Shown in pieces: positions 2,790 through 27,384 of a stretch of 32,000 bases of DNA. The notes beneath the pieces were generated by a model. That model was not told the origin of the DNA, did not search any database, and was given only the letters and a program-made list of their open reading frames with translations. Each line of letters begins with the position of its first letter. The first letter of the stretch is position 1. The position numbers and the translations under genes were made by a program. The stretch covers positions 5,160,001-5,192,000 of the forward strand of contig NZ_CP042911.1 in NCBI RefSeq assembly GCF_008065095.1, given 5' to 3'. The DNA is from Gemmata obscuriglobus. Lineage in GTDB: Bacteria; Planctomycetota; Planctomycetia; Gemmatales; Gemmataceae.

Positions 2790-3147
2790 TCGATGCCCTC
2801 GGCGGTTCCGAGGTGGCACGCTCAGCATCGCGGCTCCGCGGAAGCCCGCCCACCGTCGCGGCCGAGCGGAGCACCACCGACCCACCCGCCGTGTCCCGGC
2901 CCATTGGAGGCTGGCACCAACCGCACCTGGCGGCGACGAGCCGCGCCAACCACCAGCGGGCGCCACGCGGAGCACCACCGACCCGAACCACCGTGTCCCC
3001 ACGCGCCGCCGGCCACGCCCAACCGCACCTCGCGGCGGCGAGCCGCGCCAGACACGACCGGCACCCCGCGGAACCCGACACAAGGGTTTCACCACCGCGG
3101 ACCACACGCCTCGCACCGCCGCACGCGCACTCATGCACGCGATGGTT
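2790..3147 (-). repeat. ORF-less repeat cassette family R (2 units)
   Basis: Same architecture as 2342-2698. Confidence 0.8.
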
Positions 3148-3238: not shown

Positions 3239-3596
3239 TCGCTCACCACCGCGGTTCCGGGCCACGGGCCGAGCGTCGCGCATCCGCGGAGCCCGTGCCA
3301 CCGGTGCGGGCGTGCGGAGCACCACCGACTCGACGCACCGTGTCGCGGCCCACCGGAGGCCACCCACCACCGCCACGCGCGGCGATGAGCCGCGCCCGGC
3401 ACCCACGGGCACCACGCGGAGCACCACCGACTCGAACCGCCGTGTCCCCACGCGCCCCCGGCCACGCCCACCCGCACCTCGCGGCGACGAGCCGCGCCAG
3501 CCCCGCCCGGCCCCACGCGGAGCACCACACGTGGGGTTCACCCACGCGGACCACACGCACACCACCGCCGCACGCGCGCTCAGGAACGCGAGGGTG
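3239..3596 (-). repeat. ORF-less repeat cassette family R (2 units)
   Basis: Same architecture as 2342-2698. Confidence 0.8.
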
Positions 3597-4153: not shown

Positions 4154-4244
4154 GCCGAACGAACAGCTCACCTGCACCGCCATCACCGGATGAGCGATGC
4201 GATCCAAACTACATGGCGGTGTCAGGTGCAGCGCCGGGTTCGGC
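4154..4244 (-). repeat. attC-like site, class A
   Basis: Class A palindrome, identical to 12271-12361. Confidence 0.8.
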
Positions 4245-4251
4245 GTCTGGG

Positions 4252-4707
4252 CTACCCCCGCCAGACCACCTGCACGCCGGCAAGCTCGATGCCGCCTGGC
4301 CCGGCGGCGAGTTGCCCGGCCTTGCGGTTAAGCAGGGCCGGCCCGAAGCACTCGCCGAACCCGACCCGCTCCCCGCAGTGCAGGAAGCTGACGTACGGCC
4401 AGCGGTAGAACGACCCCCGCACCTTCTCGGGGGCGTCTCGCCAGCCGAGCAACCGGCCGGGCCGGCCGCACTCCCGCACCCCGGCGTCCGTCACCTCCCA
4501 CCACTGGAAGGTGCTGCCGTGGTCGAACTGCCCGCGCTCCAGGTCGCCGTCCGCGACTTGGTAGATGTACAGCGCGTCGAACGCGGCGAGGTCGGCGACG
4601 CGGACCCCGAATGAGTCGGCCACGTAGTCGAGGAAACGCGGCGTGCGGTGCCACGACCAGACGTCGGCCAGTGCCTCAGCGACCGAACGCGACGGCTGCG
4701 GCTCCAT
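4252..4707 (-). CDS. hypothetical cassette protein family X (151 aa), copy 1 of 3
   Basis: ATG 4707 follows CGAGGG, 21 nt after attC 4728-4818. Its own TAG lies 7 nt before attC 4154-4244. The protein is identical to 10840..11295 and 12369..12824. Confidence 0.75.
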   Translation of the reverse strand: MEPQPSRSVAEALADVWSWHRTPRFLDYVADSFGVRVADLAAFDALYIYQVADGDLERGQFDHGSTFQWWEVTDAGVRECGRPGRLLGWRDAPEKVRGSFYRWPYVSFLHCGERVGFGECFGPALLNRKAGQLAAGPGGIELAGVQVVWRG

Positions 4708-10740: not shown

Positions 10741-10832
10741 GCCGAACAATGAAGCTCACCTGCACCGCCATCATCGGATGAGCGGTGCGTCCCGCATCAG
10801 CCGGCGGTGTCAGGTGCAGCGCCGGGTTCGGC
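10741..10832 (-). repeat. attC-like site, class A
   Basis: Class A palindrome, 92 nt. Confidence 0.8.
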
Positions 10833-10839
10833 GTCTGGG

Positions 10840-11295
10840 CTACCCCCGCCAGACCACCTGCACGCCGGCAAGCTCGATGCCGCCTGGCCCGGCGGCGAGT
10901 TGCCCGGCCTTGCGGTTGAGCAGGGCCGGCCCGAAGCACTCGCCGAACCCGACCCGCTCCCCGCAGTGCAGGAAGCTGACGTACGGCCAGCGGTAGAACG
11001 ACCCCCGCACCTTCTCGGGGGCGTCTCGCCAGCCGAGCAACCGGCCGGGCCGGCCGCACTCCCGCACCCCGGCGTCCGTCACCTCCCACCACTGGAAGGT
11101 GCTGCCGTGGTCGAACTGCCCGCGCTCCAGGTCGCCGTCCGCGACTTGGTAGATGTACAGCGCGTCGAACGCGGCGAGGTCGGCGACGCGGACCCCGAAT
11201 GAGTCGGCCACGTAGTCGAGGAAACGCGGCGTGCGGTGCCACGACCAGACGTCGGCCAGTGCCTCAGCGACCGAACGCGACGGCTGCGGCTCCAT
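10840..11295 (-). CDS. hypothetical cassette protein family X (151 aa), copy 2 of 3
   Basis: The protein is identical to 4252..4707. The one nucleotide difference I saw is synonymous (gttaag vs gttgag on +). The track fuses it to the upstream cassette (10840..11685) because attC 11316-11406 has no stop in that frame. Confidence 0.75.
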   Translation of the reverse strand: MEPQPSRSVAEALADVWSWHRTPRFLDYVADSFGVRVADLAAFDALYIYQVADGDLERGQFDHGSTFQWWEVTDAGVRECGRPGRLLGWRDAPEKVRGSFYRWPYVSFLHCGERVGFGECFGPALLNRKAGQLAAGPGGIELAGVQVVWRG

Positions 11296-12270: not shown

Positions 12271-12361
12271 GCCGAACGAACAGCTCACCTGCACCGCCAT
12301 CACCGGATGAGCGATGCGATCCAAACTACATGGCGGTGTCAGGTGCAGCGCCGGGTTCGGC
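12271..12361 (-). repeat. attC-like site, class A
   Basis: Class A palindrome, identical to 4154-4244. Confidence 0.8.
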
Positions 12362-12368
12362 GTCTGGG

Positions 12369-12824
12369 CTACCCCCGCCAGACCACCTGCACGCCGGCAA
12401 GCTCGATGCCGCCTGGCCCGGCGGCGAGTTGCCCGGCCTTGCGGTTAAGCAGGGCCGGCCCGAAGCACTCGCCGAACCCGACCCGCTCCCCGCAGTGCAG
12501 GAAGCTGACGTACGGCCAGCGGTAGAACGACCCCCGCACCTTCTCGGGGGCGTCTCGCCAGCCGAGCAACCGGCCGGGCCGGCCGCACTCCCGTACCCCG
12601 GCGTCCGTCACCTCCCACCACTGGAAGGTGCTGCCGTGGTCGAACTGCCCGCGCTCCAGGTCGCCGTCCGCGACTTGGTAGATGTACAGCGCGTCGAACG
12701 CGGCGAGGTCGGCGACGCGGACCCCGAATGAGTCGGCCACGTAGTCGAGGAAACGCGGCGTGCGGTGCCACGACCAGACGTCGGCCAGTGCCTCAGCGAC
12801 CGAACGCGACGGCTGCGGCTCCAT
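12369..12824 (-). CDS. hypothetical cassette protein family X (151 aa), copy 3 of 3
   Basis: The protein is identical to 4252..4707, with one synonymous difference (cccgcac vs cccgtac on +). It is flanked by attCs identical to those of copy 1. Confidence 0.75.
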   Translation of the reverse strand: MEPQPSRSVAEALADVWSWHRTPRFLDYVADSFGVRVADLAAFDALYIYQVADGDLERGQFDHGSTFQWWEVTDAGVRECGRPGRLLGWRDAPEKVRGSFYRWPYVSFLHCGERVGFGECFGPALLNRKAGQLAAGPGGIELAGVQVVWRG

Positions 12825-12935: not shown

Positions 12936-13267
12936 TTCTGCGCCCCGCGCCGCGCATCCGCGGAGCCCGCCCACCGACGCGGCCGAGCGGAGCCACCACC
13001 GACCCGACCCGCCGTGTCCCGGCACACCGGAGGCCACGCCCACCGCCACACGCGGCGACGAGCCGCGCCAACCACACACGGGCACCACGCGGAGCACCAC
13101 CGAACCGAAACGCCGTGTCCCGGCACACCGGAGGCCACGCCCACCGCACCTCGCGGCGACGAGCCGCGCCAGCCCCAACCGGCACCACGCGAAGCCCGAC
13201 ACCCGGGGTTCACCACCGCGGACCACACGCCCACCGCCGCCCGCGCGCCCTGATGCACGCGAGGGTG
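12936..13267 (-). repeat. ORF-less repeat cassette family R (2 units, short tail)
   Basis: Same architecture. Confidence 0.8.
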
Positions 13268-13359
13268 GCCGAACAATCAAGCTCACCTGCACCGCCATCA
13301 CACGATGAGCGGTGCGCCCCGAATCAGCGGGCGGTGTCAGGTGCAGCGCCGGGTTCGGC
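13268..13359 (-). repeat. attC-like site, class A
   Basis: Class A palindrome, 92 nt, same as 22237-22328. Confidence 0.8.
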
Positions 13360-13367
13360 CTGCCTTG

Positions 13368-13751
13368 CTACCCGCGAACCGCGTGCAGCCCAGTGATGCG
13401 GGTGACGACGCCCTCGGCGACCCGCCGCCCGCCCTCGTGGCAGTAGAACCGGGCGCCGGGGGCAATCCGGCCGCGATGCACCTCGGCCCGCATCTCATCC
13501 ATCACGACCGTCATGCGGGCGGACAACTCCACGCCTACCGGCAGTCCATGATCGGTCGCCAGGCTCTGTCCGTCAGCGGCGAAGAAGTCCGGCCAGATCA
13601 TGTACAGGCTCGGTGGGGTTGGCCCGTCGTCGGCATAGGCGAAGTCCCACCGGATGCCGTTGAACGCCCGCGTCCGCCGCCCACCCTCCTCCGGGCCGTA
13701 CACCCGGATGGCGGCCTCGAAGTCGTCGGGTGGGTAGAGACCTCCGCCCAT
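13368..13751 (-). CDS. hypothetical cassette protein family Y (127 aa), copy 1 of 2
   Basis: ATG 13751 follows GGAGGG, 18 nt after class B attC 13769-13921. It has its own stop. The C-terminal FYCHEGGRRVAEGVVTRI loosely recalls EF-Tu-type beta-barrel motifs (weak). Confidence 0.7.
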   Translation of the reverse strand: MGGGLYPPDDFEAAIRVYGPEEGGRRTRAFNGIRWDFAYADDGPTPPSLYMIWPDFFAADGQSLATDHGLPVGVELSARMTVVMDEMRAEVHRGRIAPGARFYCHEGGRRVAEGVVTRITGLHAVRG

Positions 13752-13768
13752 CGGTGCGCCCTCCGGTT

Positions 13769-13921
13769 GCCGAACCAGGAGCTGAGCTGCAAGCCGCCCC
13801 TCTCAGGGCGGTCTCCCCTTGCTCCCGCGACGGCTTGTCAGCTCCAGCGGGGGGGTCGGCCGACGGCCGCCTCCTTCCGCCAGAGGATGAGTGAGCGTTG
13901 CAGCTCAGCTCCTGGTTCGGC
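13769..13921 (-). repeat. attC-like site, class B composite (153 nt)
   Basis: The inner 92-nt attC homologue is 13769-13860: gccgaac-cagga-gctgagctg-caagccgcc / loop / gacggcttg-T-cagctc-C-agc-ggggg-gGtcggc (inner box carries a point change). It is followed by a 36-nt spacer and a perfect inverted copy of the first 25 nt (cttgcagctcagctcctggttcggc). Confidence 0.7.
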
Positions 13922-14094
13922 CGCCGCCGGATGAGCTCAGCCCACCGGGGACATCGCACGGCGGGAGATCACCATGCGACCTCAGGCCGCTCGGATCGGC
14001 GGGCCCTCGCCGGTCGCCTTCACCAGGGGGGAGGTGGCGACAACCTTACGACCGCCCGCCGATCCGCGGCGCTTGCAACCACCTCACGGCGGCG
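13922..14094 (-). repeat. ORF-less structured cassette S (173 nt), copy 1 of 4
   Basis: There is no ORF above 13 codons in the cassette direction. It has a 17-bp stem, gccgcggatcggcgggc / gcccgccgatccg(a)gcggc, enclosing the nested hairpin gtcgcc-acc..ggt-gaa-ggcgac, and the ends cgccgcc/ggcggcg pair. It is always attached to a class B attC. Confidence 0.7.
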
Positions 14095-16703: not shown

Positions 16704-16856
16704 GCCGAACCAGGAGCTGAGCTGCAAGCCGCCCCTCTCAGGGCGGTCTCCCCTTGCTCCCGCGACGGCTTGTCAGCTCCAGCGGGGGGTTCGGCCGACG
16801 GCCGCCTCCTTCCGCCAGAGGGTGAGTGAGCCTTGCAGCTCAGCTCCTGGTTCGGC
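16704..16856 (-). repeat. attC-like site, class B composite (153 nt)
   Basis: Built as 13769-13921. The inner attC 16704-16795 has an intact gttcggc box. Confidence 0.7.
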
Positions 16857-17029
16857 CGCCGCCGGATCCGCTCAGCCCACCGGGGACATCGCACGGCGGG
16901 AGAACACCATGCGACCTCAGGCCGCTCGGATCGGCGGGCCCTCGCCGGTCGCCTTCACCAGGGGGGAGGTGGCGACAACCTTACGACCGCCCGCCGATCC
17001 GCGGCGCTTGCAACCACCTCACGGCGGCG
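16857..17029 (-). repeat. ORF-less structured cassette S, copy 2 of 4
   Basis: Same element as 13922-14094, with a few substitutions. Confidence 0.7.
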
Positions 17030-21900: not shown

Positions 21901-22236
21901 TTCTGCGCCCACCGTCGCGGTTCCGCGGAGCCCGCGCCCGCGCCGCGCATCCGCGGAGCCACCACCGACCCGCACCACCGTGCCGCGGCACACCGGTGGC
22001 CGCCCACCACCGACACCCGCGGCGGTGAGCCGCGCCCGCCAACCACGGGCACCACGCGGAGCACCACCGACCCGCACCACCGTGTCCCCACCCACACCGG
22101 GCCACGACCACCCGCACCTCGCGGCGGCGAGCCGCGCCAACCACCAGCAGGCCACACGCGGAGCCCGACACCCGGGGTTCACCACCGCGGACCACACGCC
22201 CACCGCCGCCCGCGCGCCCTGATGCACGCGAGGGTG
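21901..22236 (-). repeat. ORF-less repeat cassette family R (2 units, short tail)
   Basis: Same architecture. Confidence 0.8.
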
Positions 22237-22328
22237 GCCGAACAATCAAGCTCACCTGCACCGCCATCACACGATGAGCGGTGCGCCCCGAATCAGCGGG
22301 CGGTGTCAGGTGCAGCGCCGGGTTCGGC
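22237..22328 (-). repeat. attC-like site, class A
   Basis: Class A palindrome, 92 nt, same as 13268-13359. Confidence 0.8.
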
Positions 22329-22336
22329 CTGCCTTG

Positions 22337-22720
22337 CTACCCGCGAACCGCGTGCAGCCCAGTGATGCGGGTGACGACGCCCTCGGCGACCCGCCGCCCG
22401 CCCTCGTGGCAGTAGAACCGGGCGCCGGGGGCAATCCGGCCGCGATGCACCTCGGCCCGCATCTCATCCATCACGACCGTCATGCGGGCGGACAACTCCA
22501 CGCCTACCGGCAGTCCATGATCGGTCGCCAGGCTCTGTCCGTCAGCGGCGAAGAAGTCCGGCCAGATCATGTACAGGCTCGGTGGGGTTGGCCCGTCGTC
22601 GGCATAGGCGAAGTCCCACCGGATGCCGTTGAACGCCCGCGTCCGCCGCCCACCCTCCTCCGGGCCGTACACCCGGATGGCGGCCTCGAAGTCGTCGGGT
22701 GGGTAGAGACCTCCGCCCAT
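22337..22720 (-). CDS. hypothetical cassette protein family Y (127 aa), copy 2 of 2
   Basis: The protein is identical to 13368..13751, and the flanks are the same (attC 22237-22328 and class B attC 22738-22890). Confidence 0.7.
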   Translation of the reverse strand: MGGGLYPPDDFEAAIRVYGPEEGGRRTRAFNGIRWDFAYADDGPTPPSLYMIWPDFFAADGQSLATDHGLPVGVELSARMTVVMDEMRAEVHRGRIAPGARFYCHEGGRRVAEGVVTRITGLHAVRG

Positions 22721-22737
22721 CGGTGCGCCCTCCGGTT

Positions 22738-22890
22738 GCCGAACCAGGAGCTGAGCTGCAAGCCGCCCCTCTCAGGGCGGTCTCCCCTTGCTCCCGCGAC
22801 GGCTTGTCAGCTCCAGCGGGGGGGTCGGCCGACGGCCGCCTCCTTCCGCCAGAGGGTGAGTGAGCCTTGCAGCTCAGCTCCTGGTTCGGC
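22738..22890 (-). repeat. attC-like site, class B composite (153 nt)
   Basis: Built as 13769-13921, with the inner box ggtcggc. Confidence 0.7.
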
Positions 22891-23063
22891 CGCCGCCGGA
22901 TCCGCTCAGCCCACCGGGGACATCGCACGGCGGGAGAACACCATGCGACCTCAGGCCGCTCGGATCGGCGGGCCCTCGCCGGTCGCCTTCACCAGGGGGG
23001 AGGTGGCGACAACCTTACGACCGCCCGCCGATCCGCGGCGCTTGCAACCACCTCACGGCGGGT
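22891..23063 (-). repeat. ORF-less structured cassette S, copy 3 of 4
   Basis: Same element. It is followed directly by a second S unit. Confidence 0.7.
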
Positions 23064-23216
23064 GCCGAACCAGGAGCTGAGCTGCAAGCCGCCCCTCTCA
23101 GGGCGGTCTCCCCTTGCTCCCGCGACGGCTTGTCAGCTCCAGCGGGGGGTTCGGCCGACGGCCGCCTCCTTCCGCCAGAGGATGAGTGAGCCTTGCAGCT
23201 CAGCTCCTGGTTCGGC
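23064..23216 (-). repeat. attC-like site, class B composite (153 nt)
   Basis: Built as 16704-16856, with the inner box intact. Confidence 0.7.
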
Positions 23217-23389
23217 ACCCGCCGGATGAGCTCAGCCCACCGGGGACATCGCACGGCGGGAGATCACCATGCGACCTCAGGCCGCTCGGATCGGCGGGCC
23301 CTCGCCGGTCGCCTTCACCAGGGTGGAGGTGGCGACAACCTTACGACCGCCCGCCGATCCGCGGCGCTTGCAACCACCTCACGGCGGCG
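23217..23389 (-). repeat. ORF-less structured cassette S, copy 4 of 4
   Basis: Same element. Confidence 0.7.
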
Positions 23390-23480
23390 GCCGAACGAAC
23401 AGCTCACCTGCACCGCCATCACACGATGAGCGATGCGTCGCAGTATAGCGGGCGGTGTCAGGTGCAGCGCCGGGTTCGGC
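23390..23480 (-). repeat. attC-like site, class A
   Basis: Class A palindrome: gccgaac..cacctgcaccgcc|loop|ggcggtgTcaggtg..gttcggc. Confidence 0.8.
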
Positions 23481-23816
23481 TCGCGCACGTCCGCGCCGCG
23501 CATCCGCGGAAGCCCGCCCACCGGTGCGGGCGGGCGGAGCACCACCGACCCCGCGCGCCGTGTCCCGGCCCACCGAGGGCCACCCACCACCGCACCTCGC
23601 GGCGATGAGCCGCGCCGACCACCGGCGGGCACCACGCGGAGCACCACCGACCTGAACCGCCGTGTCCCAACGCATCGGAGGCCACGCCCAACCGCACCTC
23701 GCGGCGATGAGCCGCGCCAGCCACGATCGGTATCACGCGGAGCACGACGCGCGAGGTACACCCACGCGGACCACACCGTCAGCGCCGCCGCACCCGCGCT
23801 CCTGCACGCGAGGGTT
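23481..23816 (-). repeat. ORF-less repeat cassette family R (2 units)
   Basis: Same architecture. Confidence 0.8.
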
Positions 23817-25143: not shown

Positions 25144-25501
25144 TCGCTCGCCTCCGCGGTTCCGAGCGACACGTCCAGCGCCGCGCATCCGCGGAGCCCG
25201 GGCCACCGGTGCGGCCGAGCGGAGCAGCACCGACCCGACGCGCCGTGCGCGGCCCATCGGAGGCCGGCCACCACCGCACCTCGCGGCGACGAGCCGCGCC
25301 CGCCCTGACGCGCGCCCCGCGGAGCACCACCGACCCGGACCGCCGTGTCCCCACCCGCCGACGGCCACGCCCAACCGCACCGCGCGGCGGCGAGCCGCGC
25401 CACACACCCACGGGCGCCACGCGGAGCGCCACACCACCGCCGGACGCCCCGCGGACCACACGCCCAGCTCTGCCGCACGCGCCCTCATGCACGCGATGGT
25501 A
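25144..25501 (-). repeat. ORF-less repeat cassette family R (2 units)
   Basis: Identical to 25592-25949. Confidence 0.8.
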
Positions 25502-27293: not shown

Positions 27294-27384
27294 GCCGAAC
27301 ATAAAGCTCACCGGCCGCGGGACCACGCGACACGGTCGGGAAAGTACGTATTTGACCGCGGTCCGGTGCAGCGCCGGGTTCGGC
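27294..27384 (-). repeat. attC-like site, class A with covarying inner stems
   Basis: gccgaac-ataa-agctcaccgg-ccgcgg / loop / ccgcgg-T-ccggtg-C-agcgccgg-gttcggc. Both inner stems are replaced by compensatory sequences, while the boxes and both bulged bases are kept. Confidence 0.75.

Follow-up and report, generated by a model that had tools for sequence, protein, structure and literature searches.

The window analyzed here, a 32-kb stretch of the Gemmata obscuriglobus chromosome (positions 5,160,001 to 5,192,000 of contig NZ_CP042911.1; approximately 2.83 to 2.86 Mb in chromosome record CP025958.1), is a giant integron cassette array that extends at least 10 kb past the right window end. It contains 61 attC recombination sites, of which 56 are very uniform (class A), one is an odd variant, and four belong to a second class (class B). 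A rare second attC type within a uniform chromosomal array is not unusual per se. Each class B site lies within a 153-nt element (B) composed of a first and a second arm (arm1 and arm2), which form the attC, and an additional third arm (arm3). B is always followed by a 173-nt body without a protein gene (S), and the four 326-bp S+B units are approximately 98% identical. As described in a first-pass annotation of this DNA, two units lie in tandem at 22738-23389 (B at 22738-22890 and 23064-23216), and the other two begin at 13769 and 16704 (Table 1). The minus strand carries the array genes and their codon-position GC signature, and every attC has its single-base bulges on the plus-strand 3' arm. 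This identifies the plus strand as the bottom strand that is recombined, with the cassettes reading from right to left. In this direction S precedes B, which is the attC of S, and S+B thus constitutes a single cassette.

Relatives of S+B were sought with the arm pattern of B over one genome per species and, in metagenomes, with a hairpin of S (H3). The genome scan yielded true matches only in Gemmataceae bacterium CJuql4, which has four identical units beside four different gene cassettes and a fifth unit cut by an assembly gap; 14 further arm-pattern matches outside the Gemmataceae were rejected as chance matches, being located inside coding DNA with no partner arm. The metagenome scan gave four true matches (loci L024, L037, L039, and L041). 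The total was 12 complete units and one gap-truncated unit from five Gemmataceae lineages. The coupling proposed in the first-pass annotation proved strict throughout the 12 complete units, each S being accompanied by a three-armed B and each B by an S. A covariance model of S run over all collected loci recovered known units only, so that S was seen neither apart from B nor in divergent form in other cassettes, and a short-query BLASTN search of the masked loci with S added only the gap-truncated copy (L017, 3006-3073). The same type of search found no similarity of S to non-attC DNA upstream of the units in L020 (CJuql4) and L037. Scans of viral contigs with the S and B patterns gave no match, and neither did BLASTN against plasmids.

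Sequence conservation begins and ends at the R boxes, and the neighbors differ between units, as expected for joints made by an integrase. In CJuql4 (L020), S+B is the first unit past moeA-, panD-, and DUF1080-like genes, and the joint is an orphan R box; no integrase gene lies close by. In L041 (1-1060), a decayed GC-rich S+B adjoins a low-GC gene for a prepilin-like protein; the arm1 R box of this unit now reads GCCTATC and its arm2 inner stem is 3 nt short, and arm3 and S are intact. This arrangement suggests that a GC-rich cassette moved into a different genome. These placements show that the unit has moved by site-specific recombination, also from one genome to another, and S+B is a mobile gene-less integron cassette family of several Gemmataceae, in line with the initial proposal of a mobile noncoding cassette. 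Just upstream of the first S+B of CJuql4 (L020, 2840-2952), we also observed four copies of AGGTTGCG in alternating orientation beside an orphan GTTCGGC, which could be an attI-like site.

Regarding the identity of B as a recombination site, a covariance model of 34 class A sites, to which the textbook structure was assigned, aligned end to end (model positions 1 to 91) with the first 92 nt of both tandem B elements (E values of 1e-9 to 1e-11; scores in Table 1), and the plus strand outscored the minus strand. The anatomy was exactly as first annotated (GCCGAAC-CAGGA-GCT-GAGCTG-CAAGCCG .. CGGCTTG-T-CAGCTC-C-AGC-GGGGG-GTTCGGC), i.e., the inner stems are unlike those of class A yet complementary, and the model placed both bulges at class A positions. 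The R boxes at the hairpin base (GCCGAAC...GTTCGGC) are those of the 57 other sites in the window, and the fold energy of the 92-nt part was -25.8 to -27.8 kcal/mol, compared with -26.7 +/- 1.8 kcal/mol for class A. B sites of the relatives scored 25 to 42 bits with the class A model. The central spacer is unpaired in every lineage (CAGGA against GGGGG, GACCC, or GGATT), and the two single-base bulges on arm2 are fixed in position and variable in identity (T/C in some lineages, A/G in others). On this sequence evidence, the arm1:arm2 hairpin of B is an ordinary attC of this integron type.

With canonical attC sites (59-base elements; e.g., the Vibrio cholerae repeat [VCR] and attCaadA7; PMC2727003, PMC5027507), B shares the AAC/GTT R boxes, the unpaired central spacer, the L stems, the R''-L'' extrahelical bases, and the variable loop, as well as compensatory conservation of structure and the pairing of a few bases past the R boxes. 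B alone has a third arm, which complements the cleaved arm without bulges and with the spacer paired and is located 44 to 61 nt farther 3' (R box to R box), and a three-way covariation. None of the 57 other attC sites of the window has such an arm. The first-pass annotation had reported a 36-nt spacer and a perfect 25-nt inverted copy of arm1 in all four B elements; both parts are present, but the copy is perfect in only three units and matches at 24 of 25 positions in the unit at 13769.

In the arm1:arm3 helix, both bulges are gone and the central spacer is paired (CAGGA:TCCTG). The suggestion that B can fold either as an attC or as a longer hairpin was borne out by the predicted energies, which were -55 to -57 kcal/mol for the long helix on either strand and approximately -26 kcal/mol for the attC fold (i.e., a gap of approximately 30 kcal/mol). 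The B 153-mers folded as DNA with z scores of -6.9 and -7.7, and 0 of 200 shuffled sequences folded equally well. In their equilibrium ensembles, the attC pairs had a mean probability of 1e-5 to 2e-4 versus 0.95 to 0.99 for the long helix. As a control, 55 class A sites taken with the same length of 3' flank had a median attC fold probability of 0.94 (minimum, 0.13).

The helix can also extend beyond B. The two ends of S are complementary octamers (P0a at the start and P0b at the end), and arm3 plus P0a makes up a second, "perfected" copy of the right half-site. The sequence following arm2 is itself P0a-like (arm2 plus flank, GTTCGGC-CGCCGYCC; arm3 plus P0a, GTTCGGC-CG(A)CCGCCG), and by this resemblance arm3 plus P0a looks like a duplicated right half-site that was made perfect against arm1. 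In a tandem or an excised circle, P0b plus arm1 and arm3 plus P0a fuse into an uninterrupted, bulge-free helix of 31 to 37 bp. With the cassette folded as a circular single strand, this helix formed in all five lineages, with a gain of 23 to 34 kcal/mol over the same circle with arm3 blocked. The G. obscuriglobus tandem has two unique octamer variants, namely CGGCGGGT as P0b of the first unit (23056-23063) and ACCCGCCG as P0a of the second (23217-23224). With their GT/AC double variant, these octamers complement each other rather than the partners within their own S, so that a 33-bp perfect helix spans the B element at 23064. The double variant is indicative of in-place templated correction or, alternatively, of selection on this helix.

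Comparison of the five lineages indicated that the third arm has been retained together with its pairing. Arm3 was full length in all five, with arm1:arm3 pairing over 23 to 25 bp and an adjacent spacer that ranged from approximately 18 to 36 nt. Mean between-lineage identity was 0.91 for arm1 and 0.84 for arm3; the spacer (0.46), the loop (0.57), and the freely varying unpaired spacer on the arm2 side (0.39) were less conserved. Positions 14, 20, and 23 of arm1 had changed in some lineages, and each change was compensated in both arm2 and arm3. For arm1:arm2, these three compensated pairs were accompanied by pairing in 96% of alignment cells, versus 18 to 41% with a slid partner. The arm3 R box was invariant, and the arm2 R box was altered in L039 and in two G. 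obscuriglobus copies (the GTT-to-GGT change noted earlier in the 13769 and 22738 units). Covariation was present in the larger alignment for both pairings of arm1 (with arm2 and with arm3) and for the H1 hairpin of S.

S itself has a consensus structure consisting of the terminal pairing P0, with an A:T co-insertion common to four lineages, and three hairpins (H1, H2, and H3). In H1, 5 of 9 pairs were compensated; H2 has a conserved CGGNTC loop; and H3 is a sequence-invariant hairpin (92% identical, including its loop and two 1x1 mismatches). Across the five lineages, eight pairs of S had changed on both sides, a number reached by 12 of 500 shuffles, and the covariation score was 0.184 versus 0.070. 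The "17-bp stem" described at first was reduced to a 13-bp perfect core that is specific to G. obscuriglobus and does not occur in the consensus of the relatives, and a 13- to 17-bp stem was therefore rejected as the core of S. A conserved tail block, CGACCGCCC (23015-23026, 23341-23352, and equivalents), resembles P0a and the sequence after arm2, which gives P0b three candidate pairing partners; the block is also able to pair with the 5' strand of H3. These pairings are hints of additional alternative structures.

Several lines of evidence bear on the coding capacity of S. The lineages have no reading frame in common, and they are separated by frame-breaking indels. GC content is flat across codon positions (0.74/0.68/0.77 for GC1/2/3, compared with 0.73/0.52/0.88 in gene cassettes). 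The early statement that S has no open reading frame (ORF) above 13 codons is correct only if ORFs are required to start with ATG and to lie on the sense strand, since GTG- or TTG-initiated ORFs of 59 to 153 aa run across S and B on both strands; these appear spurious, having neither conservation nor the codon-position GC signature. The only long sense frame, of 114 aa in CJuql4, had no homolog among 5.8 billion proteins, and Pfam searches with five ORFs over S or B gave a best E value of 0.12, below the family cutoff. Compensatory changes are present, and no protein homolog or family was found for S. Rfam 15 returned no match in the window at the gathering score and none at an E value of 10; the best subthreshold match scored 17.6 bits, compared with a cutoff of 60.7. 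A scan for sigma-70-like promoters and intrinsic terminators found none, planctomycete promoters being outside the coverage of that scan. S is noncoding with conserved structure.

Taken together, these results lead us to propose that S+B is a gene-less, structured, mobile cassette whose third arm is an intramolecular lock on its own attC. We assign this reading a probability of approximately 0.45; the lock function of the arm is inferred from folding models and from analogy with published mutants. If all 153 nt were single stranded, the long helix would outcompete the attC fold. Because this helix lacks the unpaired features that the integrase needs, it would act as an "anti-attC." Recombination at the site would then require that arm3 be unavailable as a single strand (e.g., when still duplex or already copied). 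Such a lock would throttle both excision and insertion of the cassette and would keep S+B in the array. S probably would act at the level of that single strand or, through H3, as a hairpin that binds a protein; its role is the least certain part of the proposal. One arm with two mutually exclusive partners is also the principle of terminator/antiterminator hairpins; those act on nascent RNA, whereas the setting of the S+B structures would be single-stranded DNA at a site of site-specific recombination.

The switch between recombinogenic and inert folds that was envisaged in the first-pass annotation is supported by the predicted energetics and by published mutants. When a VCR site was stripped of its extrahelical bases and its spacer was paired, integration was 8.5e4-fold lower (PMC2727003). 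Engineered sites of this kind (mut20 and mut21) have the extrahelical bases deleted and/or the central spacer paired, and arm1:arm3 has exactly these properties, with no extrahelical bases and a fully annealed spacer. The laboratory mutants have the perfect fold only, whereas B is a natural site with both folds. Cassette excision is regulated by the propensity of the site to adopt the recombinogenic fold (PMC5371416), and natural attC strands partition between active and inactive conformations (PMC6393395). B resembles these cases of alternative conformations and "pfold" control in that competing hairpins would set the frequency of the recombinogenic fold. The differences in the known cases are subtle (i.e., straight versus kinked hairpins, or spacer bases), whereas B has a dedicated 25-bp arm and a predicted shift of more than three orders of magnitude.

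Several points weigh against a lock. No integrase gene was seen in the window or in the 10 kb upstream of it, over which the array continues, and no attI site was located. At least three independent placements in G. obscuriglobus and at least four in CJuql4 fit a tight lock poorly. Some attC sites tolerate the loss of extrahelical bases alone (PMC5027507), and the term "inert" hence rests on the paired spacer. The energies are equilibrium nearest-neighbor values that ignore single-stranded DNA-binding protein, capture by the integrase, the order of strand exposure, and the kinetics of closing a 103-nt loop. The covariation comes from five lineages, of which L037 and L041 are close relatives, and from three covarying arm positions; templated correction of a quasi-palindrome could keep the complementarity perfect without selection. 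Finally, S has no assignable function.

A further-reaching version of the lock, which we regard as rather doubtful, is that S+B is a self-regulating parasitic cassette with DNA structure as its only payload. The anti-attC arm, as the 31- to 37-bp helix in the excised circle, would gate the integrase, and the conserved hairpins of S, as a single-stranded DNA module, would recruit the integrase or a host factor, or else protect the circle. Such a cassette would constitute a new layer of integron control that is encoded by the cassette itself.

The main alternative is that the third arm is functionless, i.e., a duplicate of the right half-site perfected by quasi-palindrome template switching, with S+B as a selfish or junk hitchhiker. 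In such template-switch correction, clustered complementary changes keep a palindrome perfect. The resemblance of arm2 plus flank to arm3 plus P0a would fit a direct duplication, and the two adjacent bases that changed jointly on both helix arms in the tandem, in copies otherwise 98% identical, are a signature of templated correction; moreover, approximately 40% of the cassettes in the array are gene-less anyway. We nevertheless consider this explanation somewhat unlikely, because long perfect palindromes are usually unstable and yet arm3 has remained full length in five lineages in which the spacer is only 46% identical, and because the invariant and covarying hairpins of S are hard to explain for junk.

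An RNA function of S, and perhaps of the long stem of B, would be another way to account for the conserved structure. S+B would in that case provide a cis element or small RNA in array transcripts, with the 25-bp stem serving RNase III-type processing or stabilization upstream of the ribosome-binding site of the next cassette. The covariation of H1, the conserved unpaired blocks, and H3 with its conserved 1x1 mismatches are typical of structured RNAs, and on the plus strand U-G pairs are invariant in H2 and H3 and occur in arm1:arm3 of L037 and L041. Watson-Crick covariation is the same for RNA and for single-stranded DNA, however, and it suits equally well the latter, which is the known working form of integron sites. 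Neither the counts of G-U versus A-C pairs nor alignment folds of both strands were decisive for the strand of S. Given also that Rfam had no match even at E = 10 and that promoter- and terminator-like sites were not found, we consider an RNA function unlikely.

A promoter cassette that drives the downstream cassette, as in Vibrio superintegrons, is very unlikely. Gene-less Vibrio cassettes are mostly sense-strand promoters whose activity is unpredictable in silico (PMC11014356), and a gene cassette lies directly downstream of 10 of the 12 complete S+B units (the exceptions being the unit at 16704, followed by a module cassette described below, and that at 23064, followed by the other S+B of the tandem). 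However, S is 72 to 76% GC with no conserved A/T-rich hexamer, the sigma-70 scan with its limit for planctomycetes was negative, the 25-bp hairpin sits between S and the downstream gene, and a promoter would leave arm3 and the covarying hairpin unexplained. A decayed gene or small protein in S, or an origin of S+B as a miniature inverted-repeat transposable element (MITE) or insertion-sequence derivative that targeted attC, is extremely unlikely despite the ORFs over the unit, the open CJuql4 frame, and the MITE-like 25-bp terminal inverted repeats of B, since the coding evidence above is uniformly negative (no conserved frame, frame-breaking indels, flat GC1/2/3, and no homolog or significant Pfam match) and since the conserved unit includes S, ends at R-box crossovers, lacks a target-site duplication, and has no match in plasmid and viral collections.

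TABLE 1 Coordinates of the S+B units, their parts, and the adjoining class A site (window positions)
Feature	Position	Strand	Description
B unit 1, arm1	22738-22765	+	R box GCCGAAC, spacer CAGGA, and L stems; cleaved arm of the attC bottom strand; attC covariance model over 22738-22829, 41.9 bits
B unit 1, attC terminal loop	22766-22799	+	Variable; between-lineage identity of 0.57
B unit 1, arm2	22800-22829	+	Bulged partner of arm1; extrahelical T and C; GGGGG unpaired; R box mutated to GGTCGGC
B unit 1, spacer between arm2 and arm3	22830-22865	+	36 nt; poorly conserved, length varies
B unit 1, arm3	22866-22890	+	Perfect 25-nt reverse complement of arm1; bulge-free, spacer paired
S unit 1	22891-23063	+	P0a 22891-22898; H1 22923-22948; H2 22954-22974; H3 22982-23010; tail block 23015-23026; P0b 23056-23063 (variant CGGCGGGT)
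B unit 2, arm1	23064-23091	+	attC covariance model over 23064-23155, 48.5 bits
B unit 2, arm2	23126-23155	+	Bulged partner; R box intact (GTTCGGC)
B unit 2, arm3	23192-23216	+	With flanks 23056-23063 and 23217-23224, 33-bp perfect helix (23056-23088 with 23192-23224)
S unit 2	23217-23389	+	P0a 23217-23224 (variant ACCCGCCG); H1 23249-23274; H2 23280-23300; H3 23308-23336; tail block 23341-23352; P0b 23382-23389
Class A attC of the upstream cassette	23390-23480	+	106 bits; its R box GCCGAAC marks the S+B crossover edge on the upstream side (sense orientation)
S+B unit at 13769	13769-14094	+	B 13769-13921, S 13922-14094; downstream 127-aa gene cassette shared with the 22738 unit; part of a two-cassette duplication
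S+B unit at 16704	16704-17029	+	B 16704-16856, S 16857-17029; context unlike that of the other units

The surrounding array has further repeated and gene-less content. A class A attC, the 127-aa gene cassette, B, and S are duplicated as a block at 13174-14094 and 22143-23063, with similarity reaching 595 nt to the left of B at fewer than six mismatches. Other cassettes are present two to three times (e.g., 4165-4464, 10753-11052, and 12282-12581). The odd attC at 27294-27384 represents a third type, in which the class A outer boxes are combined with an inner stem swapped for CCGCGG../..CCGCGG, and it is a further structure-preserving variant.

A second gene-less family accounts for approximately 21 of 60 cassettes, each with one to three tandem modules of approximately 101 nt (e.g., 2342-2698, 2790-3147, 3239-3596, 23481-23816, and 25144-25501). 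GC content in these cassettes is flat across codon positions. Their module marker, CGCGGCGRYGAGCCGCGCC, occurs 43 times on the plus strand versus 0.02 expected and is confined to G. obscuriglobus among the loci compared. Together with S+B, this family brings the proportion of cassettes without a coding signature in the window to approximately 40%. Numerous gene cassettes in the window and in the flanking loci (L001, L002, and L048) encode SMI1/KNR4-SUKH, Imm1, or Barstar-type proteins, i.e., immunity-protein families, and a ribosomal S21-like cassette is also found there. GC skew on the plus strand is negative across positions 1 to 32000 (cumulative, -3.3), which places the attC bottom strands on the C-rich strand; this may reflect the orientation of the array relative to replication or a plain gene strand bias.

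Like the gene-less cassettes of Vibrio (promoter cassettes; PMC11014356) and Treponema (ORF-less cassettes; PMC6557892), S+B is bounded by crossovers, has one 3' attC and no protein gene, and resides in a large chromosomal array. It differs from both in the absence of promoter-like sequence, in its covarying structure, in its multicopy occurrence across genera, and in the extra competitor arm. Gene-less cassettes and attC diversity as such are already known. To our knowledge, no natural attC with a conserved third arm and no gene-less cassette family with covarying structure across genera has been described; our literature searches, which were aimed at neither, gave none.

In the usual view, cassettes are passive genes attached to a recombination hairpin, and their mobility depends on the integrase, replication, and subtle hairpin properties. 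S+B contrasts with this view in having no gene and a built-in competitor arm, with a predicted shift of the recombinogenic fold of more than a thousandfold. With approximately 40% of its cassettes gene-less, the Gemmata array also raises the question of what such an array is for. If the lock works as proposed, cassettes would encode control of their own mobility, which would bear on the stability of very large chromosomal arrays and on selfish DNA within integrons. Switchable structure-specific recombination sites could, moreover, be designed after this natural example.

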